Shown here piece by piece: positions 24,517 to 60,596 of a DNA stretch of 64,000 bases. Numbering within the stretch: position 1 is the first letter of the stretch; each line of letters starts with the position of its first letter. The position numbers and the translations under genes were made by a program. The stretch is taken from the NCBI GenBank assembly GCA_963836955.1, contig CAWILO010000005.1, positions 207,466 through 271,465 of the forward strand. The letters are read 5' to 3'. Origin of the DNA: an uncultured delta proteobacterium. GTDB lineage: Bacteria > Desulfobacterota > Binatia > Binatales > Binataceae. Below the pieces are notes generated by a model, which was not told the DNA's origin, made no database searches, and was given only the letters and a program-made list of their open reading frames with translations.

Positions 24517-25517
24517 TTATTCCAGTCGGCGCCGCTTGCGAGATGACCCTTGTCGCTGTCGATCTCGAAGTAGGTCGCATCGACGCCCGCGGCCTTGAGT
24601 TTCGACATCACGTCGGGCGCGATGCTCGGCGGGAACAGCTTGTCGGTACGCGACAGCACGTAGAGCACTCTCGCCCGGATCTTGGCGAAGTCCTTCTCGG
24701 CGTTGTAGTGCTAGCGCGCCCGAGCCAACGCAATCATCGAATTGGGATCGAAGACCCTCGCCCACGGTTCTGCGAGCTGATGGATCGCAGCCTCGCGCTG
24801 CGCCGGATCGGGAAACCTCGGAGCGAGCTCAGCCTCGATACCGTAGCGCTTGAGCGTCGCGACGCGCAGCTCGGTCATGAAGCCGAGCATCTCCGCGTTT
24901 CCATAATGGTGGCCGCCGTTCCATCCTGGAGCCTCGGCAAACCGCGCCCGCAGATCGGCCACCATGCGGCCGCCGTCGGTTGCGTTGGGCGCCGTGACGA
25001 CCGGGACGATCCCGCTCATCGCATCGGGGAACGTGACGCCCCATTGAAACGCCTGGTAGCCGCCGAATGACAGGCCTGCGACTGCCACCAGGTGCTTGAC
25101 GCCGAGCGCGTCGAGCAGCGCGCGCTGAGCGCTAACGATATCGACGAGGGTGTAGTCGGGAAAATCGGGACCGTACGGCTTGCCGGTTTTCGGATTGATG
25201 CTCGCGGGCGCGGTCGAATCGTACGACGATCCGAGCATGTTCGATGACACGACGAAGCATTTGTTGGTGTCGATCGCCTTGCCCGGCCCAATCAGCCCGT
25301 CCCACCATCCGACCTCACCATTCGCATCGAGTCCCGCGGCGTGCTGGCTCGACGTGTAACCATGCGTCACGAGGATCGCGTTGCGTCCGTTTGGCGCGAG
25401 AGTTCCATAAGTCTCGTACGCGAGCTTGAGTTCGGGCAGGACCTCGCCGCTTTGAAGTCTGAAGTTCCTGGTCGAGAAAGTTTTTACTTCGACTACGCCG
25501 AGGGTTTCAATTGCCAT
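24474..25517 (-). pseudogene. metX: homoserine O-acetyltransferase-like alpha/beta hydrolase (MetX family) interrupted by an in-frame TAG at 24711-24713
   Basis: N-terminal part has the nucleophile elbow GLSFGG. The C-terminal 78 aa (..VLYVLSRTDKLFPP..) continue in the same frame straight after the amber codon. Total length about 371 aa matches MetX. Confidence 0.55.
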
Positions 25518-26154
25518 CGTCTTTTCCGCTTTCAGGCGTGCGGCGGAAGGTCCAGAATCTGACTCCGCTGGTCCCGGCTTCCTCGCCATTCACGATCGTG
25601 TCGAAGCCCTGTTTACGATAGAACGCAACGTTGCGCTCGTTTTCGGTCTCGAGGTAGCAGGCGACCTGTTCGGCATCGGCGCGCTCGAGCCCCGGGCGCA
25701 TCAACTCGCCACCGAGTCCGCGACGCTGACGACTCGGCTCGACGCCGAGCAGGAACAGGTACCAGCAAGCGCCCGTCATGTCTCGCTCGCGCGCCTGCCA
25801 TTCGCGTCCAACCACTTCTCGATAGCGCTGATATGCGTCGTTGCCGATGACGTTCGCCATCTGATGCATCCCCGACGCCTCTATATTCTCGCGCGTCCAC
25901 TTCGCATTGGGCGGCAGCCAGAGCGCCACGCCCTCGACGTCTGCGGTCGCATAAACTTCGCCCGCGAGAGTTCCGAAGCGGATCATCCTCGCATACACGT
26001 CAGGCAGCAGCCGGACGCGTTCTGCGGGATCGGAAATAGCGTAGAACATGAGCGGATCGTCGTGAAACGCCCGCGCGAGCGTCGTCGCGGCCGCGGGAAT
26101 TTGATGCTCGGTGAGCCTTACGATTTTCGCACTCACGAGTGCATCGTCGCACAC
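25507..26154 (-). CDS. GNAT family N-acetyltransferase
   Basis: 215 aa with acetyl-CoA-binding motif (RRGLGGELM) and GNAT C-terminal motif (FYRKQGF). Confidence 0.7.
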   Translation of the reverse strand: MCDDALVSAKIVRLTEHQIPAAATTLARAFHDDPLMFYAISDPAERVRLLPDVYARMIRFGTLAGEVYATADVEGVALWLPPNAKWTRENIEASGMHQMANVIGNDAYQRYREVVGREWQARERDMTGACWYLFLLGVEPSRQRRGLGGELMRPGLERADAEQVACYLETENERNVAFYRKQGFDTIVNGEEAGTSGVRFWTFRRTPESGKDDGN

Positions 26155-38436: not shown

Positions 38437-39132
38437 TTGCGAGAATGCGTTAATCATTGTGCGAGAGCGATTTCCGTAATGCATACGGTTTTCGTTGGCA
38501 CGTTCGGTGCAGTTCCATTCACAGGATGTGGAATGACTATGTGGAATGGAAAGACTATATCGACTAACAAATCGAGCCAGAATCCTCTCGAAAAAGATGA
38601 GACCACGGCGCGAGTTGAAGCCGCGCTTAAGCGATTGAGCCTCGAGGATTCAAAACCCGGCGACCGTCTGTTGAATGCGGCCGTCGCAGGCGCGGTGGTC
38701 GCGCGTCAGCCGGCCGATCAGATGCTGCGAGCGGAAGCGGCCGAGGCCTGGAATTCGATTCAGCCGGTGATCGCGCATCACCTTACCAGCGAAGAAAATG
38801 TTGTTCTTCCGTGGGCGACGTCGCGGGAAGATTTTCCGCATGACCTGGTATTGCGTGCGCGCGAGCAGCATCTGCGACTGCGCGACCTTGCGCGAATAGT
38901 CGATGCGACGTCGTTCATCACCGGGTCGGACGAGGAAGTCACCAAGGCCGGCACCGCTTTGACCGCGTTCGCCGTATGTCTGGACGATCTGATCGACGGC
39001 GAAGAGCGCGACTTGTTCCCGATGCTCCAGCGCTGCCTTTTTCGGCGGTCCCACAAGCGCGTGACTCGAGGCACGTCGGTGTCTACTTCGGGTAGCCGAC
39101 CTCTAGCAGGAAGTCGCGCACCAGTTGATTGA
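38437..39132 (+). CDS. hemerythrin HHE cation-binding domain protein
   Basis: Two H..E..LFP-type motifs (IAHHLTSEENVVLPW; LIDGEERDLFPM). True start probably at 38539 (MTMWNGK). The 3' end overlaps the next gene by about 50 nt. Confidence 0.5.
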   Translation: MRECVNHCARAISVMHTVFVGTFGAVPFTGCGMTMWNGKTISTNKSSQNPLEKDETTARVEAALKRLSLEDSKPGDRLLNAAVAGAVVARQPADQMLRAEAAEAWNSIQPVIAHHLTSEENVVLPWATSREDFPHDLVLRAREQHLRLRDLARIVDATSFITGSDEEVTKAGTALTAFAVCLDDLIDGEERDLFPMLQRCLFRRSHKRVTRGTSVSTSGSRPLAGSRAPVD

Positions 39133-39892
39133 ACACGGGCGCATTCTCGAAATAGATCGAATGGCCGCTGCCGGGTACCGTGCGCAACCGCGAGTTCGGT
39201 AGCGCCGACGCCAGCTTCCTTGTGATGTCGGGCGTGATCAGAGTGTCTTCTTCGCCGACCATGCACAGTATCGGCATCGTCAATCGCCGCTTCACGTCGT
39301 CGAGGTTGTAGCGCAGGCCGACGATGCGCGCGCCGGCGTCGGCGGGAGGACGCGCGCCGTGAATCCGGATCTCGTCGTAGAGAAAAGCCATCTCGGACCG
39401 CCGCGAAAAGTAATCGGCAGCGTACGTCGGTAACGATCCGATCGGCGGAGTCGCATCCACCGGCAGCGCCGCGCGCGCGTCGGGTCTAGGGAAATTCATC
39501 TCGGGCGTGAAGATACCGCCGGGCGTGTCCGCCATCACCATCGCGGCGACTCGTTCAGGATGCTCGAGTGTGTAGCCGACTATAGTCCACCCGCCCATCG
39601 ATTGCCCCACCAGCACGGCTTTTTCGATCTTCAGATAGTCGAGCAGGGCGCCGAGATCGCTCGAGTGCGCGCGATTGAACAGGCCATCGGGATCGGGCGA
39701 GAGGCCGAAGCCGCGCTGATCGACGGTGATGCATTCGAACGAACGCATGAAGTAGGGGACCTGCTGCCACCACGAGAGGTGGTTGCCGCCGAGTCCGTGC
39801 AGGAAGACGATTGGAGCGCCGGCGCCGACGCGTTCGTAGTAGAGCGAGAACTTGCCGATTTCCAATCTACCGGGCGTGATTCGATATTCCAT
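39083..39892 (-). CDS. alpha/beta hydrolase
   Basis: HG oxyanion motif (VFLHGLGG) and nucleophile elbow (GQSMGG). Confidence 0.75.
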   Translation of the reverse strand: MEYRITPGRLEIGKFSLYYERVGAGAPIVFLHGLGGNHLSWWQQVPYFMRSFECITVDQRGFGLSPDPDGLFNRAHSSDLGALLDYLKIEKAVLVGQSMGGWTIVGYTLEHPERVAAMVMADTPGGIFTPEMNFPRPDARAALPVDATPPIGSLPTYAADYFSRRSEMAFLYDEIRIHGARPPADAGARIVGLRYNLDDVKRRLTMPILCMVGEEDTLITPDITRKLASALPNSRLRTVPGSGHSIYFENAPVFNQLVRDFLLEVGYPK

Positions 39893-39937: not shown

Positions 39938-40546
39938 CTAGCCTTTTCGATTGTCGATGCGAAGCCCTGAAAGCAGTTGCACGACGTTCTCGCCGACTTT
40001 GCGACGCGCGGCTGGCTTGTCGTCGGCGTGGGCGATGAAGATGGCGCCTTCGGTCAACGCACCGATCAACAGATGCGCCAACGAGTCGATCGGTCCCGGC
40101 GCTATGATGCCCTGATCGACGGCCGCCTGCAGTGCAGCCATCACGAGGCGGAGGTTGTACTTGGTGTCGATCTCGCGCCATCGCTCCCATCCGAGGACGG
40201 CGAGGGCGTCGATCAGCACGATTCGCTGTACGGCGGGATCGAGGCAAGCGTCGAGGAAGGCATTGCAGCCAGCGAGCATCCCGTCCCAGGCGCCCGACTT
40301 GATGGACGCAGCCTGAGCTACAACCAGTGAGAGTTTTTGTTCCACGAGATCGAACACGGCCGAGAACAAATCCTGCTTGTCTTTGAAGTGATGGTAGAGC
40401 GCGCCACGGGTGACGCGGGTGCGGCGGGCGACGGTCTCGATATCGGTGTCGGCGTAACCATGGCGTGCGAAGAGCTTGCGTGCGGTTTTTATGAGGGCGG
40501 CGCGGGTGGCCAGCGACTGCTCGAGCTTGCGGCTCTTGACTGCCAT
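39938..40546 (-). CDS. TetR/AcrR family transcriptional regulator
   Basis: N-terminal HTH (TRAALIKTARKLFARHGYADTDIETVARRTRVTRGALYHHF). Confidence 0.85.
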   Translation of the reverse strand: MAVKSRKLEQSLATRAALIKTARKLFARHGYADTDIETVARRTRVTRGALYHHFKDKQDLFSAVFDLVEQKLSLVVAQAASIKSGAWDGMLAGCNAFLDACLDPAVQRIVLIDALAVLGWERWREIDTKYNLRLVMAALQAAVDQGIIAPGPIDSLAHLLIGALTEGAIFIAHADDKPAARRKVGENVVQLLSGLRIDNRKG

Positions 40547-40623
40547 ACTGTTCTCATGTCACATACATACTGTTGGTATGTAAGATACTCACCAATCAAA
40601 TCGTGACAGGAGGCAGGTTAGCA
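40547..40623. promoter_or_regulatory. divergent promoter/operator region between the TetR regulator and the alpha/beta hydrolase
   Basis: Direct repeat CATACTGTT x2 and a near-palindrome ACATACATAC..GTATGTAAG in the 77-bp intergenic region. Confidence 0.35.
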
Positions 40624-41484
40624 ATGAAAGCAGAAGAGTTCCATCACGCGCGCAAGTTCGCGGATACCACTTTCGGTCGAATTGCATACGTCGAGAAGGG
40701 CACGGGCCCGGCGGCGCTGTTCGTTCACGGATTTCCAGTCAACGGTTTCGCGTGGCGCGGCACGTTGGAGGATCTCGCGGCAACGCAGCGATGTATCGCG
40801 TTCGATCTGATGGGGTTGGGCTACACCGAAATCAAGGCGGACCAGGACCTCGGATTCGACCAGCAGGCCGCAATGATCGCCGGCTTTCTCGATCGGCTGG
40901 GCTTGTCGCAAGTGGACCTGGTCGGCAACGACAGTGGCGCGAGTATCAGCCAGGTGTTCGCGGCGCGATATCCGTCGCGTCTGCGCAGCCTGACGATCAC
41001 CAACTGCGAGGTTCACGATCTGTGGCCCAATCCGATGCTGAAAGCGGTGTTCGACCAGTTCGCGGACCCAGCGATCGTCATGGGGCTGAACGCGATGCTG
41101 CAATCGCCGGCGGTCGCACGCCAGGGCTTGGCTTCAGTTTATGAAGACGCCGAGCGCATCCCGGACGAAGCGTTCAAGACTTATCTCGAGCCGGTGCTGT
41201 CGTCGGAGGAGCGGACTAACAGCCTGCGACGCTTTCTAAATCTCGCCAATCTGAAAGTGTTAACCTCGATCGCGCCACAACTGCGGGAGCTCAAGGTGCC
41301 GACGCTGATTGTGTGGGGCGAGGCCGACACGGCATTCGATCTGAAGTCGCCGGAGTGGCTGAAGAACAATATCGGCGGCGTGCGCCGGCTGATCATGGTG
41401 CCGCGCGCGAAACTGTTCTTCCCGGAGGAGCATCCGAAGCTGATGAGCGTGCTGCTGCAGGAGTTCTGGCGCAGCATATCGTGA
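40624..41484 (+). CDS. alpha/beta hydrolase (haloalkane dehalogenase/epoxide hydrolase-like)
   Basis: HG motif (LFVHGFP) and nucleophile elbow (GNDSGASI). Start at MKAEEF. Confidence 0.75.
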   Translation: MKAEEFHHARKFADTTFGRIAYVEKGTGPAALFVHGFPVNGFAWRGTLEDLAATQRCIAFDLMGLGYTEIKADQDLGFDQQAAMIAGFLDRLGLSQVDLVGNDSGASISQVFAARYPSRLRSLTITNCEVHDLWPNPMLKAVFDQFADPAIVMGLNAMLQSPAVARQGLASVYEDAERIPDEAFKTYLEPVLSSEERTNSLRRFLNLANLKVLTSIAPQLRELKVPTLIVWGEADTAFDLKSPEWLKNNIGGVRRLIMVPRAKLFFPEEHPKLMSVLLQEFWRSIS

Positions 41485-50763: not shown

Positions 50764-52035
50764 TTGGATAGGGAAATTTCCGTGGATATTGTACGACCTC
50801 ATGCTCCGACAATTCGCGATATTATCCGCCGCTACTACACGGTATGGGGACTGTACTCGTTCGCCGGTGGATTTCTTTTCGGCGTCTACCCAATCTTCCT
50901 GCGCTCGCGCGGACTCAGCCAGTTTCAGATAAACAGCGTACTGGCGACGTACTTCCTCGTCCTGTTCCTGACCGACGTGCCTACCGGTGCGTTCGCCGAT
51001 CTGCTGGGCAGGCGCCGCTCGTACGTGCTGGGCGCGTCGCTCCGGGTCTGCGCGTTCCTGCTGTATTTCGTCGCGCATCATTACTACGTGTTCCTCATCG
51101 CGGAGAGTATCGACGGTATCGGCACGACCTTCGGCAATGGCGCGATTGACGCGTGGGGCGTCGATGCGCTCGACCAGGCCGGCTACGACGGACTCAAGGA
51201 CCGGCTGTTCTCGCGCATCTCGCAACTGACGACGATTGGCTTCATGGGGTCGGCGATGATCGGCGCGTACGTCGCCGACGTCAATGTCGCATGGCCGTGG
51301 CTGCTCGGCGCCGGCGGCTACATTATCGCCGGCACGATGGGCGCATTTTTGATGCACGACGAGCCTCCGCGCGCGACGACCGTCAGGATCGCGGCGATCC
51401 CGCGGCAAGTCGCCGCCAACGTGGGCGACGGTATTCGCGCCGGACTGGGCGCGCACACCGTGCTTATGCTGAGCATCGCGAACGCCATCACGTTCGCGGC
51501 GTGGGCGCCGTATTGGATTTCGTGGCCGATCATGTTCAACGAGAGCCTCGGCGTAGGCGTGTGGGTCATCGGTTGGATCTATTGCGGTTTGTCGGCCGCG
51601 CGGCTGATCGGTGCGGAGGTAAGCGCGCGGCTGGTCGTGGACGAATCGCAGCGTGCGGCGCGGGTGAGCATGATGGTTATCGCCGCGAGCGCGATGCTGT
51701 TCCTGGCGGGGCTGTTCGGCGGCCGGCCGGCGGTGTCGCTCGCGATGCTGTTCATCATGAATCTGTTCACGGGCGCGATGATGCCGTTGGTTCAGAGCTG
51801 GTTCAACGAGCAGATCGAATCGGGCAATCGCGCGACCCTGTTGTCATTCAACAGCACCTTCCAGACGATGGGCGGTGCAGCAGGCCTGCTGTTAGCCGGG
51901 CGAATCGCGGACACGGCTGGAATACCGTTCGAGTGGCAGATCGCGGGGCTGATCTCGATGTGCGCCGCGCCGGTGTATTGGGCAACGCGCCGTCGCGAGG
52001 ACGAAGAGGTAGCGCTCGCAGGCACCGCGAAGTGA
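50764..52035 (+). CDS. MFS transporter
   Basis: 423 aa, about 12 predicted TM helices, MFS motif region (GAFADLLGRRRS). Start codon uncertain (TTG 50764 or GTG 50785). Confidence 0.8.
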   Translation: MDREISVDIVRPHAPTIRDIIRRYYTVWGLYSFAGGFLFGVYPIFLRSRGLSQFQINSVLATYFLVLFLTDVPTGAFADLLGRRRSYVLGASLRVCAFLLYFVAHHYYVFLIAESIDGIGTTFGNGAIDAWGVDALDQAGYDGLKDRLFSRISQLTTIGFMGSAMIGAYVADVNVAWPWLLGAGGYIIAGTMGAFLMHDEPPRATTVRIAAIPRQVAANVGDGIRAGLGAHTVLMLSIANAITFAAWAPYWISWPIMFNESLGVGVWVIGWIYCGLSAARLIGAEVSARLVVDESQRAARVSMMVIAASAMLFLAGLFGGRPAVSLAMLFIMNLFTGAMMPLVQSWFNEQIESGNRATLLSFNSTFQTMGGAAGLLLAGRIADTAGIPFEWQIAGLISMCAAPVYWATRRREDEEVALAGTAK

Positions 52036-52064
52036 GCGAGTCACAAAGACGGATCTTCTGTCGA

Positions 52065-52163
52065 CCGAGAGCAAAGTAGTGCGCTGCGCGCAACTTTGCG
52101 ATTGACACTGGCTGCAGGGGTCACCCCTGCCCAGGGAAGTGTGAAACCCACGGTGGGTTTCAC
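52065..52163 (+). repeat. palindromic repeat element copy C (extended triple-hairpin form)
   Basis: Matches copy B (reverse complement) over about 100 bp and copy A over the 3' 58 bp. Confidence 0.8.
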
Positions 52164-52234
52164 TACGTCAAGTTCCTAACGGCCGCGCCCCTACTAGCGG
52201 CGTAGGCGGGCGTCCGTTAAAACTTATAGGTCTT

Positions 52235-53443
52235 ATGGATTTCCCACGAATCAAGCGGCTGCCACCCTATGTCTTCAACGCGATCGGTGAATTGTGCCTG
52301 CAGGCGCGGCGAGCCGGTGAGGACATAATCGACTTCGGGATGGGAAATCCTGACGAAGCGACCCCGCCACACATCGTGGCGAAGCTGGTCGAGGCGGCTA
52401 CCAAGAACGCGAACCATCGCTACTCGGTCTCGCGCGGGGTGTACAAGCTGCGGCTTGCGATCTGCGATTGGTACAAGCGGCGCTACGGCGTCGAACTCGA
52501 TCCCGATTCGGAAGCGATCGTCACGATCGGATCGAAGGAAGGGATCGCGCACCTGGCGCTGGCGATTCTCGACCAGGGTGACGTGGTGCTCGCGCCGACG
52601 CCGACCTATCCGATTCATCAGTATGGATGCATCATTGCGGGCGCGCAGGTGCAGGGTGTGCCGATTCGCCGCGGCGAGGAATTTTTCGACGAGCTGATGT
52701 CGACGGTGAATCGATGCTGGCCGCGGCCGAAGTTCCTCATCATGAACTTCCCGCATAACCCGACTACTGCGACCGTCGATTTGCACTTCATGAATCGGGT
52801 GGTCGAGTTCGCGCGCGAAAACGACATCATGGTCGCGCAGGATTTTGCGTACGCGGACCTGTGCTTCGACGGATACAAGGCGCCGTCGATGATGCAGGTG
52901 GCGGGCGCGAAGGATATCGGCGTCGAGTTCTTCACGCTGTCGAAGAGTTACAACATGCCGGGCTGGCGCGTCGGATTCGCGGTCGGCAATCGCGAGATGA
53001 TCGCGGCGCTGGCGCGACTGAAATCGTACTTCGACTACGGGATGTTCGCGCCGGTGCAGGTCGCGGCGATCGCGGCGCTCAACGGGCCGCAGGAATGCGT
53101 CGCCGAGATCAACGCGACGTACAAGCGCCGGCGCGACGTGCTGGTCGACGGACTCAACCGCGCCGGTTGGCCGGTCGAGAAGCCCAAGGCGACGATGTTC
53201 GTGTGGGCGCCGATTCCGGAGCCGTTTCGCGCGATGGGCTCGCTCGAGTTCTCGAAGTTCCTGCTCGCGGAGGCCAAGGTCGCGGTCTCGCCGGGCATCG
53301 GCTTCGGGCAGGACGGCGACGGCTTCGTGCGCTTCGCGTTAATCGAGAACGAGCATCGCACGCGCCAGGCTATTCGCGGAATTCGTCACGCGCTGCGCGC
53401 CGGTCACGCCGAAATCCCGGTGCGCACGGCCAGCGCCTCCTGA
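52235..53443 (+). CDS. class I/II pyridoxal-phosphate aminotransferase (alanine/aspartate aminotransferase-like)
   Basis: 402 aa. PLP-lysine region ([15 protein letters not shown]); N-terminal KRLPPYVF motif typical of AlaC-like enzymes. Confidence 0.8.
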
Positions 53444-53472
53444 GCGCAATCGCCAAAGCATCGGGGGATGAG

Positions 53473-54780
53473 TTGAAGCCGGTACGGATTGCCCTGCTCG
53501 GATGCGGAACCGTGGGAGGCGGTGTGGTGAAGCTGCTGCTGCGCAATCCTGACAAGTACGAACGCATCCTCGGCGCGCCGCTCGAGCTCGCTGCCGTCGC
53601 CGATCGAAGCCTCAAGCCTGACGACGTGCCTGGTCTGCCGGCGAAACTAATTACGCGCGATTCCGCAGCAGTAGTCACCCGTCCTGATATCGATATCGTC
53701 GTCGAGCTGTTTGGCGGTCATGAACCTGCGCGCGCATTGATCATGAAGGCCCTGGCCGCCGGCAAGGACGTCGTTACCGGCAACAAGGCATTGCTTGCGG
53801 AGCATGGCGGCGAGATCTTTCGCTTGGCTGGCAAGCACGGCCTTGCGGTTGGCTTCGAGGCGAGCGTCGGCGGTGGCGTGCCGATTATCCGCACACTGCG
53901 CGAGGCGCTGGCGGGAGATCGCCAACGCGCCGTTTACGGAATCGTCAACGGCACCTGCAATTCCATTCTCACCACCATGACGGACAACGGCGTCGAGTTC
54001 AGCTCCGCACTGGCCGACGCGCAGGCGAAAGGTTTAGCCGAGGCGAACCCGGCCGTCGATGTCGAGGGACATGACTCTGCGCACAAACTTTGCCTGCTGG
54101 TCACGCTCGCATTCGGTGTGCTGGTAAAACCGGCGCAGATTTACACCGAAGGGATCACGCAAATCACGCAGTCCGATATCGCGTATGCGCGCGAGCTGGG
54201 CTACGCGATCAAGCTGCTCGCGATAGGCAAGGATGACGACGGCGCCATCGAGGCGCGCGTGCATCCCACGATGATCCCGCAACGCCATCTGCTGGCGGGC
54301 GTGGGCGGCGCCTTCAATGCTATCTATATCCACGGCGATGCGCTTGGCGCGACCATGTATTCCGGGCTCGGCGCGGGCGAGATGCCTTCGGCGACGGCGG
54401 TGATGGCCGACATACTCGAAATCGCGCGGCATCGATTGGCCGAAGGTTCGGCGCGAACGCACGCGTTTGGATTTCCGATTCACCTGATGAAGGGCGCCAG
54501 TGTCAAGCCAATGGACGACGTGGTATGCGAGTATTACCTGCGGTTCATGGCGCAGAATAAGCCCGGGGTGCTCGGCGCGATCGCGTCGGTGCTGGGCCGG
54601 CATGGGCTGTCGATCGCGTCGGTTATCCAGAAGGATCGCGGAACGGCGCGGACGGTGCCGGTCATCATGCGGACGCATGACGCGCCCGAGCGCAGCCTGA
54701 AACGCGCGCTGGCGGAGATTCGTAGGAAGAAAATCGTGCAATCGGCCCCCGCATTTATTCGAATCGAGGAGAACCTTTAG
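53473..54780 (+). CDS. hom: homoserine dehydrogenase
   Basis: NAD-binding N-terminus (VRIALLGCGTVGGGV), catalytic domain and C-terminal ACT domain (YYLRFMAQNKPGVLGAIASVLG). Start set at TTG 53473; the 639-aa ORF upstream part is alternate-frame overlap with the aminotransferase. Confidence 0.85.
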   Translation: MKPVRIALLGCGTVGGGVVKLLLRNPDKYERILGAPLELAAVADRSLKPDDVPGLPAKLITRDSAAVVTRPDIDIVVELFGGHEPARALIMKALAAGKDVVTGNKALLAEHGGEIFRLAGKHGLAVGFEASVGGGVPIIRTLREALAGDRQRAVYGIVNGTCNSILTTMTDNGVEFSSALADAQAKGLAEANPAVDVEGHDSAHKLCLLVTLAFGVLVKPAQIYTEGITQITQSDIAYARELGYAIKLLAIGKDDDGAIEARVHPTMIPQRHLLAGVGGAFNAIYIHGDALGATMYSGLGAGEMPSATAVMADILEIARHRLAEGSARTHAFGFPIHLMKGASVKPMDDVVCEYYLRFMAQNKPGVLGAIASVLGRHGLSIASVIQKDRGTARTVPVIMRTHDAPERSLKRALAEIRRKKIVQSAPAFIRIEENL

Positions 54781-54783
54781 TCG

Positions 54784-55884
54784 ATGGCGGCGGACTCGAA
54801 GAGCGGATCGAAAAATCGGCGGCTGTTTCACTGGCCCGGCCTTATCGAGCACTACCGACGCTTCCTGCCGGTGACTGATTCGACGCCGATCGTCACGCTG
54901 AACGAGGGCAACACGCCGCTTATCGAGGCGCCCTCAATCGCAGAGCGGCTCGGCTTGAACATCAAGGTTTACTTTAAGTTCGAGGGCGCCAACCCGACTG
55001 GCTCATTCAAGGACCGGGGCATGACCCTGGCTATTTCGAAGGCGCTGGGCGAGAGCGCTCGCGCCGTGATCTGCGCCTCGACCGGGAACACGGCAGCGTC
55101 GGCGGCAGCGTACGCAGGCCGCGCGGGTCTGAAGGCGTTCGTGCTGATTCCCAAAGGCGCAGTCGCACTGGGCAAGTTGTCGCAGAGCGTGATGCATGGT
55201 GCGCGGGTGCTCGAAGTGATTGGCAACTTCGATATCTGTCTCAAGGTGGTGCGCGACGTCGCCGAGCGCGATCCGGTCAAGATTCGGCTGGTGAACAGCG
55301 TGAATCCCGATCGAATCGCGGGGCAGAAAACGGCGGCGTTCGAGATTTGCGATCAACTGGGCGACGCGCCAACGCATCATTTTCTGCCGGTCGGGAACGC
55401 CGGGAATATCACGGCGTACTGGGCGGGCTACCAGGAATACAAGTCGGTGGGACTGAGCGAGCGGATTCCCAAGATGATGGGCTACCAGGCGTCGGAGTCA
55501 GCTCCAATCGTCGTCGGTCATCCGATCGACGATCCGCACACCGTGGCGACAGCGATTAAAATCGGCAATCCCGCGAGCTGGAAGGGCGCAACCGACGCGC
55601 GCGACGAGTCGGGCGGGATCATCGACATGGTCACCGATTCGGAAATCCTCGCGGCGTATCGGCTAATCGCGGCGGGCGGCGTGTTTGCCGAGCCGGCGTC
55701 TGCCGCTTCTGTCGCGGGCCTGCTCAAGTACGCGGGTGCCGGGCTGCTCAAGCCGGGATCGGTGGTGGTCTGCACGCTCACGGGTCACGGCCTGAAGGAT
55801 CCCGACACAGCGCTGAAAAACTTAAGTAATACGATCGTGGTCGAACCGGACATCGCGAAAGTGTTGAAAATTCTCGACGAGTAA
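54784..55884 (+). CDS. thrC: threonine synthase
   Basis: PLP-lysine motif (NPTGSFKDRGM) and full-length ThrC pattern. Confidence 0.9.
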   Translation: MAADSKSGSKNRRLFHWPGLIEHYRRFLPVTDSTPIVTLNEGNTPLIEAPSIAERLGLNIKVYFKFEGANPTGSFKDRGMTLAISKALGESARAVICASTGNTAASAAAYAGRAGLKAFVLIPKGAVALGKLSQSVMHGARVLEVIGNFDICLKVVRDVAERDPVKIRLVNSVNPDRIAGQKTAAFEICDQLGDAPTHHFLPVGNAGNITAYWAGYQEYKSVGLSERIPKMMGYQASESAPIVVGHPIDDPHTVATAIKIGNPASWKGATDARDESGGIIDMVTDSEILAAYRLIAAGGVFAEPASAASVAGLLKYAGAGLLKPGSVVVCTLTGHGLKDPDTALKNLSNTIVVEPDIAKVLKILDE

Positions 55885-55894
55885 TCCGAGTCAG

Positions 55895-56809
55895 ATGAAG
55901 ATGGAAAGAACCGACGAGCTCGCGATGTTTCGCACGGCGCTCGAGATCGCCGATCTTCATCCGGACGCAGTCAGGTTGCCCGACGACCATCAGGTGATCA
56001 TCGGCGCGCTCCGCTTTCATTACCTCGACTGGGGCGGATCGGGCGCGCCGATCCTTTTCCTGCACGGCGGCGGCATCAACGCGCATACCTGGGATTGCGT
56101 TGCGGTGATGTTGCGCGAACGCTATCGATGCATCGCACTCGATCAACGTGGTCATGGCGACAGCGAATGGTCACCGGTCGTCGACTACCGAATCGCGGCC
56201 CATGTTGGCGATATCGAGGGCTTTGTCACGGCGATGGGATTGGAGCGTCCGATCGTGGTCGGGCAATCGATGGGCGGTCTCAATACGATCGCCTATGCGT
56301 CGCGCCACAGCGACACGATGCGCGCGATGGTGATTGTCGATGTCGCGCCGGAGGTCAGCGCTTCAGGCGCGGAGCGGATTCGCGCATTCTCGTCCACGCC
56401 CGAGCTGGATTCGGCACAGGAATTTCTGGAACGCGCGGTCAAGTTCAATCCGTTGCGCGATCCCGGGGTGTTGCGCCGCAGCCTCTACTACAATCTGCGC
56501 GAGACGCCCGCTGGCAAATGGACGTTCAAGCATGATCAACGACGTCGTTCCGAAGACGCGATGCGATCCTTCACCGAGGATCGCGAGCGGCTCGTGTCAG
56601 AACTCTCCAGGATCAAATGCCCAACCCTGGTAGTCCGCGGGGCGTTGAGCGACGTACTGACCGACGACGCCGCCGAGAAATTCGCGCGCTCGCTGCCTGA
56701 TGGCCGATGGGTGCGGGTCGAGAAGTCGGGTCACAACGTGCAGGGCGACAATCCGCGAGCGCTGCTTGATGCGATGCTCACCTTTTTCAGCCAAGCGGGA
56801 ATTTCCTGA
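55895..56809 (+). CDS. alpha/beta hydrolase
   Basis: HG motif (LFLHGGG) and nucleophile elbow (GQSMGG). Confidence 0.75.
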   Translation: MKMERTDELAMFRTALEIADLHPDAVRLPDDHQVIIGALRFHYLDWGGSGAPILFLHGGGINAHTWDCVAVMLRERYRCIALDQRGHGDSEWSPVVDYRIAAHVGDIEGFVTAMGLERPIVVGQSMGGLNTIAYASRHSDTMRAMVIVDVAPEVSASGAERIRAFSSTPELDSAQEFLERAVKFNPLRDPGVLRRSLYYNLRETPAGKWTFKHDQRRRSEDAMRSFTEDRERLVSELSRIKCPTLVVRGALSDVLTDDAAEKFARSLPDGRWVRVEKSGHNVQGDNPRALLDAMLTFFSQAGIS

Positions 56810-58038
56810 TGAAGTACATCATCATTCATGGCGATGGGATGGCCGATTGGGCGTGCGACGAGCTCGGCGGCAAGACGCCGCTTGCGGCTGCGCACAAGCC
56901 CAACATGGACCTGACGGCGACGCGCGGGACGCTCGGGATGGTCGCGACGATTCCCAAGGGCATGCCGTCGGGCAGCGACGTCGGCACGATGACGATGCTC
57001 GGCTACGACCCGGCGAGGTATCACACTGGACGCGCACCGATTGAAGCGGCGAGCCAGGGAATCGAGATGGGGCCGCGTGACGTGGTGTTTCGGATGAATC
57101 TCGTGTCGCTGAAACCGGGCGAGGGCGGCGCGATGATCATGAACGATTTCACGTCGGGCCATATTACCAGCGAGGAGGCGGCGCAGATCGTCGCGGACCT
57201 GCGCAAGGAATTGGCGGGCGACGGAATCGAGTTTTTCAACGGCGTCAGCTACCGGCATCTGATGATGTGGCGTGGCGGCATCGCGACGACGCATCTCACG
57301 CCTCCGCACGACATCACGGGCAAGCCCGTCGAGGATCACCTGCCCAAGGGTGCAGGCGCGGATCTGCTGCGGGACTTGACGCGGCGTTCGGCGGCGATTT
57401 TGCGCGAGCATCCGGTGAACAAGGCGCGTCGCGACGCCGGCAAGGCTGAGGCAAGTTCGGTGTGGTTCTGGGGGCAGGGCACGCGGCCGTCGGTGCCGAC
57501 GCTCAAGGAGCGCTTCGGTGTCGAGGGCTCGGTGATTTCGGCGGTCGACCTCGTCAACGGGCTCGGGCGGCTCGCCGGCCTGAACCTGATCAAGGTTCCC
57601 GGGGCGACCGGATTTCTCGATACTGATTACGCTGCGAAGGGACGTTACGGCCTCGAATCGCTCAAGACGCGCGACTTCCTGCTGCTTCATATCGAAGCGC
57701 CGGACGAAGCCGGACACATGGGACGCGCCGATCTGAAGAAGGAAGCGATCGAGCGCATCGACCAGTTGATAATCGGGCCGATGCTCGCGGGGCTTGGGAC
57801 GCTTGGTGATTTCGCGATCCTGCTGATGCCCGATCACGCAACTCCAAGCCAACTCAAGACTCATTCGCCGGAACCCGTGCCGTTCGCGCTGATGACCTCG
57901 GCGCAGTTCAAGTCGGGCGGCGGCGTGCCGCACCGCTACACCGAAAGCGACGGCGCCGCGACGGGCATACTCGTCGGCGACGGCTATCACCTGATAGAAT
58001 CGCTATTCGGTAGCCCCTTGAAGACCACATCGAACTGA
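56809..58038 (+). CDS. ApgM-type (archaeal-type cofactor-independent) phosphoglycerate mutase homolog; candidate non-orthologous homoserine kinase
   Basis: 409 aa. Metalloenzyme-superfamily pattern (IIIHGDGMAD; LHIEAPDEAGH; PDHATP). Start overlaps the preceding stop. Located in the hom-thrC cluster. Confidence 0.75.
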   Translation: MKYIIIHGDGMADWACDELGGKTPLAAAHKPNMDLTATRGTLGMVATIPKGMPSGSDVGTMTMLGYDPARYHTGRAPIEAASQGIEMGPRDVVFRMNLVSLKPGEGGAMIMNDFTSGHITSEEAAQIVADLRKELAGDGIEFFNGVSYRHLMMWRGGIATTHLTPPHDITGKPVEDHLPKGAGADLLRDLTRRSAAILREHPVNKARRDAGKAEASSVWFWGQGTRPSVPTLKERFGVEGSVISAVDLVNGLGRLAGLNLIKVPGATGFLDTDYAAKGRYGLESLKTRDFLLLHIEAPDEAGHMGRADLKKEAIERIDQLIIGPMLAGLGTLGDFAILLMPDHATPSQLKTHSPEPVPFALMTSAQFKSGGGVPHRYTESDGAATGILVGDGYHLIESLFGSPLKTTSN

Positions 58039-58053
58039 CCCCGGGAGGCCTGG

Positions 58054-59007
58054 ATGGAGCGGAATCTTGCCCTCGAAGTGGTGCGCGCGACGGAAGCGGC
58101 GGCGCTGGCAGCGGCGCGGTTCATCGGCAAAGGCGACGAGCGGATGGCGGATCGTGCTGCGTGCGACGCGATGCGCAAGACGCTGAACTCGGTCGCGATG
58201 GACGGCAAGATCGTGATCGGCGAGGGCAAAGAGGGCGACGCCGAGTTTCTCTACGAGGGCGAAATCGTCGGCACTGGCGCGGGAACTGAAATCGACGTCG
58301 CACTCGACGCGATCGAGGGTCCCATTATTTGTGCGACCGGCGGTCCCAACGCGCTGTCGTGCGTAGCGCTGGCGGAGCGCGGCCGAATCCTGCGCTGCCC
58401 CGACACCTACATGGACAAGGTCGCGTGCGGGCCGGCAGGACGCGGCGTGATCGATATCGACAGGTCGCCAACCGACAATCTCAAGGCACTGGCCGAAGCC
58501 AAAAAAGTCTACGTCGAAGATCTACGGGTCGCGATTCTCGATCGGCCCCGGCATGAGAAGTTGATCAATGAAGTCCGGCGCGCCGGCGCCGGGATCAAGC
58601 TTATCTCTGCCGGTGACTTGTCCGCCGCGATCGCCACCACCCGGCCCGAGAGCGAAATCGACATGCTGATCGGAATCGGCGGAGCGCATCAGGGCGTGCT
58701 CGCGGGAGCTGCGATTCGTTCCGCGGGCGGCGAGATGCAATGCCGATTCGTGCCGCGCAACTCCGAAGAAGCGGAGGCGTGCCTCGCGATGGGGATCATG
58801 GACTTGAAGCATCGCTACACGCTGGAGGAACTGGCGGGCGAGAACGTGATGTTCGCGGCGACCGGCGTGACCACCGGCGACTATCTGCGCGGCGTGCGAT
58901 TTTTCTCCGGCGGCGCCAATACCAACAGCGTCGTCATGCGCTCGAAGACCCGCACCATCCGTTTCATCGAGGCGATTCATCATTTCGACTTCAAGCCCGA
59001 GTACTAA
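58054..59007 (+). CDS. glpX: fructose-1,6-bisphosphatase class II
   Basis: GlpX motifs (DRAACDAMR; IGEGKEGDAEFLYEGE; GGAHQGVLAGAA). Confidence 0.85.
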   Translation: MERNLALEVVRATEAAALAAARFIGKGDERMADRAACDAMRKTLNSVAMDGKIVIGEGKEGDAEFLYEGEIVGTGAGTEIDVALDAIEGPIICATGGPNALSCVALAERGRILRCPDTYMDKVACGPAGRGVIDIDRSPTDNLKALAEAKKVYVEDLRVAILDRPRHEKLINEVRRAGAGIKLISAGDLSAAIATTRPESEIDMLIGIGGAHQGVLAGAAIRSAGGEMQCRFVPRNSEEAEACLAMGIMDLKHRYTLEELAGENVMFAATGVTTGDYLRGVRFFSGGANTNSVVMRSKTRTIRFIEAIHHFDFKPEY

Positions 59008-59033
59008 AGCCGGTGCAGGAAGGTAGTTGAAAT

Positions 59034-59225
59034 ATGTGGCTGCGCGTGACGATGGATGACAAACCGGTGATGATTTACGGCGATCGGGTGCTGAGAATCG
59101 CGGAGATTCCGGGCGAGGAAGGGAAACGTGGATGCCACGTGTATCTCTCGCTCACCGAGTACCTGGTCGTCGATCAATCGCTGCGCGAGATGATGATTTC
59201 GCTCGGCTTCGAAGAGCGGCAGTAA
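59034..59225 (+). CDS. small hypothetical protein (weak FlbD-like pattern)
   Basis: 63 aa. Hydrophobic periodicity loosely resembles FlbD-family small proteins. No flagellar context nearby. Confidence 0.3.
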   Translation: MWLRVTMDDKPVMIYGDRVLRIAEIPGEEGKRGCHVYLSLTEYLVVDQSLREMMISLGFEERQ

Positions 59226-59228
59226 TCC

Positions 59229-60014
59229 TTGCCAGAATCGGAATCGCCTAGAGAGGGCGACGTAGTCGTTCGCCGAGGCGGACGAGTCGACGGGCTGTTC
59301 GGCGCGATGAAGCCGGGCGTCGTACTCGACATCCCGGCGGGCGGAGCCGTCCAGTCGCGGGCGCTCTCGCAACTAGGCTACCGCGTCGTGTCGGTCGACC
59401 TCTTTCCCGCCGCGCGCCGCGAGCCCACTGCCGCATGGATCTGCGCCGATGCCAACGACGTGCTGCCGTTTCGCGACGCGGCCTTCGACTACGTGTTGTC
59501 GCGCGAAGGAATCGAGCATCTCGAGGATCAGATGGGATTTCTCCGCAACTGCGCACGGGTGATTCGGCCGGGCGGGAAGATCGTGCTGACGACGCCCAAC
59601 CTGATGCATCTGTCGGCGCGTGCGAGCAGCTTTCTTACCGGTCAGCGCAATCTGCGCCGCGGCCTGATGAATGAGATCCAGACGCCGCGCAGCCGCGATC
59701 CGCGGCGGATTTATCACGGCCACGCGTTCATGCTCGACTATTATCGCGCGCGCTACATGATGCGCCTCACGGGCTTCGACCATCTCGAAGTTTATACTGA
59801 CAGGTGGAGTCCGACGTCGGTGGCGATGTCGCCGATCGTCCCGATTCTCTGGATGGCGATGAAATTCTCGGCCGCGACATCCGCCAGGAATGCACGCCGT
59901 CCGGGGCATCGCCCTCCGCGGGACGAGGTCACCCGCGAGATCATCTCCCACGTCCTTTCACCCGCACTTCTCTACGGCAAGCGAATGATAATTGTCGCCG
60001 ATCGCATCACCTAG
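59229..60014 (+). CDS. class I SAM-dependent methyltransferase
   Basis: Motif I-like VLDIPAGGA and post-I motifs (IRPGGKIVLTTPN). Confidence 0.65.
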   Translation: MPESESPREGDVVVRRGGRVDGLFGAMKPGVVLDIPAGGAVQSRALSQLGYRVVSVDLFPAARREPTAAWICADANDVLPFRDAAFDYVLSREGIEHLEDQMGFLRNCARVIRPGGKIVLTTPNLMHLSARASSFLTGQRNLRRGLMNEIQTPRSRDPRRIYHGHAFMLDYYRARYMMRLTGFDHLEVYTDRWSPTSVAMSPIVPILWMAMKFSAATSARNARRPGHRPPRDEVTREIISHVLSPALLYGKRMIIVADRIT

Positions 60015-60063
60015 TCACGAAGCAGCGACAACGGAGCGGTGACAGTGCAAGACCTAAATCATT

Positions 60064-60085
60064 GGATGCAGGGTCACCCCTGCCT
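60064..60085 (+). repeat. partial repeat element copy D (first hairpin only)
   Basis: GCAGGGTCACCCCTGCC, one G shorter than in copies A-C. Confidence 0.5.
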
Positions 60086-60596
60086 ACATCATCTGCAAAG
60101 CCTGGCAGGTGTGCGATTCGGGTTTGAACTGACCGCTGAGACACGACAGCTTGGCGGCATCGATTAGCGCCGGCTCGTCCCATTTCGTCGGCCACGGCCC
60201 GGTATTGACGGCGGCGCACGCCTGGTTGTTGCCCATCGAACACCACGCACTCAACTCTCCATGCAGCACCGCCATCTGCTGGCACGCGTCCTGTTTGCCG
60301 GCATTACAGGCAGGGGTTCCCGTCAGAATCGGCGCAGTGGACTCGATCAGGACCTTGGTGTCACTCACCTGCTGCACGATTGTATGACACGCAGCCTCGT
60401 TACCTTCGTTGCATCGCTGGGTTGATTCGGCGCGAACCTTCTCGACAAAATCCTCCGCCGGCCCTGTGCATCCCGAGGCGCCGAGCAGCGCGACCGCGAG
60501 CGCGAACATGCTGACGACGGCGGCCAGGCTCGCGGCGTGCGCTCTGGATTCGGCGGGCATCGGCGCATTGTTTCGCGCGCGATTAGTGTCACGCAA
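60084..60596 (-). CDS. Cys-rich lipoprotein
   Basis: Lipobox LLGASGC; 10 additional Cys in the mature part. Confidence 0.5.
   Translation of the reverse strand: MRDTNRARNNAPMPAESRAHAASLAAVVSMFALAVALLGASGCTGPAEDFVEKVRAESTQRCNEGNEAACHTIVQQVSDTKVLIESTAPILTGTPACNAGKQDACQQMAVLHGELSAWCSMGNNQACAAVNTGPWPTKWDEPALIDAAKLSCLSGQFKPESHTCQALQMM

Follow-up and report, generated by a model that had tools for sequence, protein, structure and literature searches.

In this study, we analyzed a 64,000-nucleotide (nt) stretch of an uncultured Binataceae genome (contig CAWILO010000005.1 of assembly GCA_963836955.1, positions 207,466 to 271,465; hereafter the window), which carries a threonine synthesis operon of Candidatus Binatus. 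As judged by sequence comparison, homoserine phosphorylation in this operon is likely (rough probability 0.8) to depend on a protein of the HomK/ThrB2 family (TIGR02535) and not on ThrB, the homoserine kinase of the GHMP family. The gene in question, at 56809-58038 on the + strand, encodes an ApgM-like metalloenzyme of 409 amino acids (aa) with the domains PF10143 and PF01676, and is referred to here as homK (ThrB2). It was assigned to HomK on the basis of its TIGR02535 score, a Glu residue at position 296 and the conserved hom-thrC operon around it. The original prediction had pointed to phosphoglycerate mutase-family proteins encoded beside thrC that are reported to serve as non-orthologous homoserine kinases; in the light of the score, E296, the synteny and the literature, this is correct and applies to the gene at 56809-58038.

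The replacement of homoserine kinase by TIGR02535 was originally proposed by the TIGRFAMs curators. The name ThrB2 comes from Ashniev et al., who reported that 278 of the 300 gut genomes with ThrB2 lack thrB, a complementary occurrence of the two families (PMC9026213). According to the GapMind 2026 preprint (10.1101/2024.10.14.618325), mutants of BT2402 in Bacteroides thetaiotaomicron require threonine, both BT2402 and the diverged DET_RS08350 rescue an Escherichia coli thrB::kan strain, and the family is renamed HomK, with Glu (E299 in BT2402) as the residue that marks HomK as opposed to Lys in the mutases. A literature search for threonine metabolism in Binatia or Binatota returned nothing relevant.

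Family assignment and key residues of HomK

The homK product scored 484.9 bits against TIGR02535 ("proposed homoserine kinase"), which exceeds the trusted cut-off of 446.3. It failed NF003104, the equivalog model of archaeal ApgM, with 263.6 bits against a cut-off of 489. Since a Lys-class protein encoded beside nadA (P0308) also passes TIGR02535 (450.7 bits), a check of residues is needed in addition to this score. The window protein contains the catalytic Ser and all metal ligands in conserved columns (D9, the nucleophile S56, D299, H303, D342, H343 and H352), together with the specificity residue E296. In the phmmer alignment with the Pyrococcus mutase 2zkt, the window motif HIEAPDEAGH lies over HFKPTDAAGH, so that E296 falls at the position of the mutase Lys. 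We then used a family alignment of 152 rows, consisting of the 150 best representatives at 50% identity, the window protein and 2zkt. Glu occupies the specificity column in 136 of these rows, and Lys is present only in 2zkt and one other row. Among 120 close Binataceae homologs, 119 have Glu, and this position is one of only 11 invariant columns in a 90-sequence alignment. Moreover, the mutase motif DRRAGR (2zkt) is replaced by DFTSGH in the window protein and by D[YFH][ST][AGS]G[HE] across the family; the disappearance of its basic residues fits a substrate other than the tri-anionic phosphoglycerate.

With regard to the characterized members, BT2402 and DET_RS08350 of Dehalococcoides, the window protein shares the ApgM-type metalloenzyme fold, Asp9, Ser56 and Glu at the specificity position, and likewise it lies above the TIGR02535 cut-off and is encoded with hom and thrC. 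D9 and S56 carry identical numbers in the window protein and in BT2402. The differences concern the host, which belongs to another phylum (Binatota), the identity to the nearest non-Binataceae representatives (about 40-50%), and the operon partners in Binataceae, namely an alaA-like aminotransferase upstream, glpX downstream and, in the window, an inserted hydrolase. The representative P0337, whose motif HVEATDEMGH has Glu exactly at residue 299, was considered as BT2402 itself because no other representative has D9/S56/E299/D346/H347 in its own numbering, and was rejected because it belongs to an archaeal clade (Methanosarcina, Bathyarchaeota) and not to Bacteroides.

An AlphaFold (AF2) model built with the 90-sequence alignment reached a predicted local distance difference test score (pLDDT) of 97.7; a single-sequence run (pLDDT 33) was discarded. 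The best Foldseek match of the model was 2zkt_B (E = 6e-34, template modeling score 0.80), and 3kd8 and 3idd were also recovered. The predicted fold of HomK is therefore that of ApgM and the alkaline-phosphatase superfamily.

Several proteins of about 1000-1100 aa (P0251, P0258, P0267, P0272, P0276, P0280, P0284 and P0349) possess a complete HomK-like N-terminal domain. An acidic linker and a single transmembrane helix follow the domain in these fusions and lead into a beta-rich region of about 500 aa without a Pfam match; one of them, P0258, passes TIGR02535 with 540 bits. In another protein (P0358), the HomK-like domain is fused to a signal peptidase S26 domain. The long fusions were considered as Rosetta-stone evidence and rejected, as their C-terminal parts consist of a transmembrane helix and an unassigned extracellular region and include no threonine enzymes.

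The gene cluster and its conservation

Six genes, all on the + strand, make up the cluster. The first encodes an alaA-like aminotransferase (52235-53443; class I/II, alanine transaminase-like; NF006033, 671 bits against a cut-off of 647; PF00155). It is followed by hom, which encodes a homoserine dehydrogenase with NAD-binding, catalytic and C-terminal ACT domains (53473-54780; NF004976, 506 bits; PF03447, PF00742 and PF01842) and starts with TTG at 53473, preceded by a Shine-Dalgarno-like GGGGGA run. The threonine synthase gene thrC (54784-55884; TIGR00260, 300.7 bits against a cut-off of 167.1; PF00291) comes next, and then a gene for an esterase-like serine hydrolase of the alpha/beta fold (55895-56809; 304 aa; Abhydrolase_1/6), homK itself, and glpX for a class II fructose-1,6-bisphosphatase (58054-59007; TIGR00330, 325 bits against a cut-off of 259; PF03320). 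Open reading frames (ORFs) and family matches thus confirm the gene order given in the original prediction. The intergenic gaps from alaA to glpX are 29, 3, 10, -1 and 15 nt in order, and from this spacing the cluster appears to be co-transcribed. The translational overlap that had been claimed between the hydrolase and the ApgM-like gene is present, albeit as a 1-nt TGATG and not as a 4-nt ATGA: the junction reads TCC TGA TG AAG, with the stop codon TGA at 56807-56809 and the start codon ATG at 56809-56811.

Using the bias in GC content at third codon positions (GC3), we called 56 candidate ORFs across the 64 kb, and all of them were searched with Pfam. None of the 56 contains a GHMP kinase domain, so the claim that the cluster lacks a ThrB-type kinase holds for the whole window as well. 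A second phosphoglycerate mutase was also not found among these ORFs.

The closest relatives of the ApgM-like protein (at most 96% identity) come from metagenome-assembled genomes named Candidatus Binatus, Candidatus Binataceae or "uncultured delta proteobacterium"; the HomK of a complete Binatus chromosome (OY970324.1, 4.58 Mb) is 93% identical. A synteny scan with one genome per species yielded 80 Binataceae loci, and the order aminotransferase-hom-thrC-homK-glpX is kept wherever the contig reaches far enough, a core shared by about 80 species. The aminotransferase gene precedes hom in nearly all of the loci. In a few, hom or thrC gave no full-length match, for which frameshifts or divergence may be the reason. 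Where relatives lack the hydrolase, the distance between thrC and homK is 8-40 nt, or the two genes share one base (e.g., locus L001). The Binataceae homK is always located in the hom-thrC cluster, never beside serC or cobD. Outside Binataceae, Glu-class homologs occur in hom-homK-aspartate kinase, hom-thrC-homK-aspartate kinase and aminotransferase-hom-...-homK arrangements. This recurrence in unrelated lineages indicates that the linkage of homK to threonine genes is old and recurrent. Among the loci examined, only those of Binataceae showed homK linked to glpX.

Proposed mechanism and phosphate donor

The gene content, the membership of the family (by score and residues), the fold and the synteny are observed here, and from them we infer the HomK activity in this lineage as well as its donor. 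In the proposed pathway, Hom (53473-54780) would make L-homoserine, HomK (56809-58038) would convert L-homoserine to O-phospho-L-homoserine, and ThrC (54784-55884) would convert the latter to threonine; O-phosphohomoserine is the substrate of threonine synthase. If the mechanism follows that of the homologous cofactor-independent phosphoglycerate mutases, D9/S56/D342/H343 would bind one divalent metal ion and D299/H303/H352 a second. The donor would phosphorylate Ser56, and phospho-Ser56 would then hand the phosphoryl group to the homoserine hydroxyl. Glu296, in place of the mutase Lys, would bind the amino group of homoserine, and the Arg cluster with which the mutases hold their anionic substrate is absent from HomK. 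The predicted product and the place in the pathway are the same as for ThrB. However, ThrB is an ATP-dependent kinase of an unrelated fold, whereas the window protein has no GHMP domain, only PF10143 and PF01676, and HomK probably works by way of a phosphorylated enzyme and takes the phosphate from a compound other than ATP.

Of the possible donors, phosphoserine is currently preferred. The GapMind 2026 preprint (10.1101/2024.10.14.618325) argues against phosphoglycerate, on the ground that HomK shows no co-occurrence with glycerate kinase, and puts phosphoserine forward as a speculation. If HomK uses phosphoserine, ThrH of Pseudomonas aeruginosa, a phosphoserine:homoserine phosphotransferase that also replaces ThrB, would be a possible functional analog, although it has a HAD fold and is not homologous to HomK. 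We propose, as a tentative idea that we hold to be possible at best, that the Binatus HomK and the whole family act as ATP-independent phosphoserine:homoserine phosphotransferases, which yield O-phosphohomoserine and serine in one step. If true, such a transfer would connect the synthesis of serine with that of threonine, and one enzyme could take the place of both ThrB and SerB. Alternatively, a sugar phosphate could be the donor, as the strictly conserved homK-glpX pair of Binataceae may suggest.

A clade of Glu-class HomK-like proteins that are 52-100% identical to P0279 was also detected. In about 20 metagenome loci, all outside the window (L089:175-2483 and L094-L116, e.g., L094:1563-5224 and L106:1624-5212), the gene of this clade has a bona fide serC immediately upstream in the same orientation. 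In L094 and L106, two diverged loci that were annotated, a serA-like dehydrogenase gene is located divergently upstream, and the HomK-like gene occupies the place expected for serB. The clade has the motif HxE[GA]PDE[CS]SH, and P0279 passes the TIGR02535 cut-off. Judging from gene neighborhood, the clade may hint at a phosphoserine-using transferase or a SerB analog, and proves nothing for Binatus. The portions of the GapMind 2026 preprint consulted (10.1101/2024.10.14.618325) contain no mention of this clade.

The inserted alpha/beta hydrolase

The product of the gene between thrC and homK has an HGGG motif at residue 57 and an intact candidate catalytic triad, which consists of Ser125 in a GQSMG nucleophile elbow, Asp253 and His280. 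Its 25 best NCBIfam matches (PcaD, haloalkane dehalogenase, esterase, BioH and others) are all far below their cut-offs, and no homoserine O-acetyl- or O-succinyl-transferase (MetX) model is among them. The best PDB match was 3p2m/6wym of Mycobacterium tuberculosis, deposited as "possible hydrolase" (E = 1e-34, residues 27-293), which we take to be the esterase Rv0045c. This best solved relative shares the alpha/beta hydrolase fold, but the similarity is moderate, and neither protein is linked to threonine synthesis. On sequence grounds, the hydrolase is best described as a putative generic esterase-like enzyme of no specific family.

At the thrC-homK junction, only nine of about 28 close Binatus loci have the hydrolase, and the more distant Binataceae all lack it there. 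On a star-like tree built from the flanking genes, the loci that have it are scattered. Frameshifts interrupt it in three genomes (L007, L013 and L018); two of these frameshifts may be long-read errors, and L018 is a k-mer (k141) assembly, presumably from short reads. Homologs with 76-81% identity occur in unrelated loci, either among CoA-transferase, EthD and ADH genes or beside a glyoxalase gene. The scattered presence, the frameshifts and the homologs elsewhere suggest that the hydrolase is a dispensable passenger. Synonymous divergence (dS) between the intact hydrolases and the window copy is 0.49-0.64, equal to that of thrC, homK and glpX, and a recent horizontal acquisition was therefore rejected. 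The ratio of nonsynonymous to synonymous divergence (dN/dS) is 0.12-0.15 for the hydrolase, 0.04-0.08 for homK and 0.01-0.03 for glpX. In a relative (L022), the stop and start codons at the hydrolase/homK junction overlap by 4 nt. The hydrolase and homK both begin with ATGAA(G/A), which provides microhomology at the indel borders. Taken together, the hydrolase is an old resident of the locus, still under selection and lost more than once, a dispensable passenger and not a pathway component. It is lineage-restricted; where it is intact, purifying selection acts on it and its translation is coupled to that of homK, and the threonine pathway would not require it.

The thrC-homK and aminotransferase-hom junctions are insertion hot spots in Binataceae. 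At the former, we observed an rve-type insertion sequence (IS) transposase (L054:8613-10000), an AAA-ATPase and a further ORF that may together form a defence-like pair (L031:8179-10000), and an RpoA-CTD-like fragment (L019:9398-10000). At the latter, a Mrr-type restriction nuclease pair was found (L002:5282-6620).

Evaluation of alternative assignments

A quite unlikely alternative is that 56809-58038 encodes a cofactor-independent phosphoglycerate mutase of the ApgM type, which forms a gluconeogenesis module with glpX and merely lies downstream of hom-thrC. The window protein passes NF003242 ("cofactor-independent phosphoglycerate mutase") with 506.5 bits against a cut-off of 426, as well as TIGR00306, the broad apgM subfamily model, with 476.7 against 320. 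In addition, every named Binataceae homolog in the protein search is labeled "cofactor-independent phosphoglycerate mutase" by JGI and NCBI, and the protein shares with archaeal ApgM (2zkt, 3kd8/3idd) the fold, the two-metal site and the serine nucleophile, with a sequence E-value of 4e-55 to 2zkt. However, the scores of NF003242 and TIGR02535 move in parallel on the test proteins, including those encoded between hom and aspartate kinase, which means that the name "mutase" is the label of one hidden Markov model (HMM) and not independent evidence. The two models give near-identical scores to the same proteins under opposite names, which explains the mutase label on the named Binataceae homologs, and the mutase name of NF003242 was probably inherited rather than tested. 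TIGR00306 and NF003242 also capture HomK proteins linked to hom. The mutase assignment is further opposed by the replacement of the Lys by Glu296 and of DRRAGR by DFTSGH with the loss of its Arg cluster, by the failure against NF003104, by a gene context of threonine synthesis and not of glycolysis alone, and by the tight coupling of the homK start to thrC wherever the hydrolase is absent (e.g., the 1-nt overlap in L001).

Several observations weigh against the assignment as HomK and keep it from being certain. Besides the NF003242 score, glpX, a gluconeogenic gene that would also fit a mutase, adjoins homK in every Binataceae locus that extends that far. The correspondence of E296 to BT2402 E299 was mapped via the 2zkt alignment and a consistent +3/+4 numbering offset. 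In this mapping, the second metal triad given for BT2402 in the preprint (D274/H278/H325) does not fall on conserved columns, while window D299, H303 and H352 would be about 302/306/356 in BT2402 numbering; BT2402 E299 and D346/H347 do map consistently. Moreover, an earlier trial of complementing E. coli thrB with BT2402 failed, and the later rescue reported in the preprint was weak (optical density +0.14; 10.1101/2024.10.14.618325). It is also unlikely, though conceivable, that the HomK of the window is a Glu-class phosphotransferase with another or broader role, such as a SerB analog (phosphoserine phosphatase), a threonine-phosphate-forming enzyme or a bifunctional mutase/HomK. The Glu-class clade that follows serC in the serB slot, beside a serA-like gene, is in line with such a role, and the same preprint suggests that Glu-class homologs beside cobD may make threonine phosphate (10.1101/2024.10.14.618325); P0308 further illustrates that an HMM score alone does not fix the function. 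On the other hand, the invariable placement of the Binataceae gene in the hom-thrC cluster argues for a role in threonine synthesis, and the window motifs DFTSGH and HIEAPDEAGH are of the hom/thrC-linked type and not of the serC-linked type (DH[SD][AS]G[DEC] and HxE[GA]PDE[CS]SH). As for the hydrolase, we regard it as very unlikely that it takes part in the pathway, for instance as an enzyme that supplies HomK with homoserine freed from its O-acyl esters, its lactone or acyl-homoserine lactones. This would explain the translational coupling through the overlapping stop and start codons, and the intact candidate triad, the dN/dS values and the dS matching that of its neighbors are those of an old selected resident where it is present. 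However, most Binatus species lack it, as do all other Binataceae, and in these thrC directly adjoins homK; the frameshifts, the homologs among CoA-transferase/EthD or glyoxalase genes and the lack of a match to MetX or any other specific family point in the same direction, and the same junction took up unrelated DNA elsewhere (the IS transposase and the AAA-ATPase pair). The original prediction had described the hydrolase as short, with a MetX-like fold, and its place in the operon as unexplained; on family matches and distribution, the idea that it is MetX-like or pathway-specific was rejected in favor of a patchy, dispensable insertion.

Candidate control sites and other features of the window

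A conserved motif, CTACTAGCGGCG-N(6-9)-G[TC]CCGTTAAAA[CA]TTATAG, was found by comparison of 25 Binataceae loci and lies just before the alaA start (52191-52232, + strand). Most of the 25 loci have this motif of about 40 nt (CTACTAGCGGCG...GTCCGTTAAAACTTATAG) ahead of alaA. Some Binatus loci share a perfect palindrome of 11 bp (GTGAAACCCAC g GTGGGTTTCAC), which lies at 52141-52163 in the window. Neither the motif nor the palindrome has an Rfam match or a sigma-70 consensus match. The motif may be a candidate promoter or operator, and the palindrome may also be a control site of the operon. Scans of 51900-60200 for sigma-70 promoters and terminators gave no more matches than in shuffled sequence, and an Rfam search of the operon and its leader gave no match.

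Downstream of the cluster, an ORF of 63 aa without a Pfam match (59034-59225) lies between glpX and a gene for an S-adenosylmethionine (SAM)-dependent methyltransferase (59229-60014); in a relative (L002), a gene of 64 aa was called at the equivalent place. Three more alpha/beta-hydrolase genes are present in the window (24711-25589 on the - strand, 39083-39892 on the - strand and 40573-41484 on the + strand), and one pair of them flanks a TetR regulator gene (39938-40546). These copies suggest an expansion of the hydrolase family in this genome.

Significance of the finding

The system is an already described case of non-orthologous displacement (TIGR02535/ThrB2/HomK), and the gene cluster itself reveals no new kind of system; what is new here is a misnamed member in the Binataceae lineage. 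The finding calls for an annotation fix, as the Binataceae homologs and, by extension, the proteins named after NF003242 are called mutases while the evidence points to homoserine phosphorylation. Without this correction, metabolic reconstructions of these abundant uncultured soil bacteria would show a false gap in threonine synthesis and a false glycolytic enzyme. In addition, the Binataceae operon and the clade linked to serA and serC provide two genomic contexts that give concrete hypotheses on the phosphate donor of the family.

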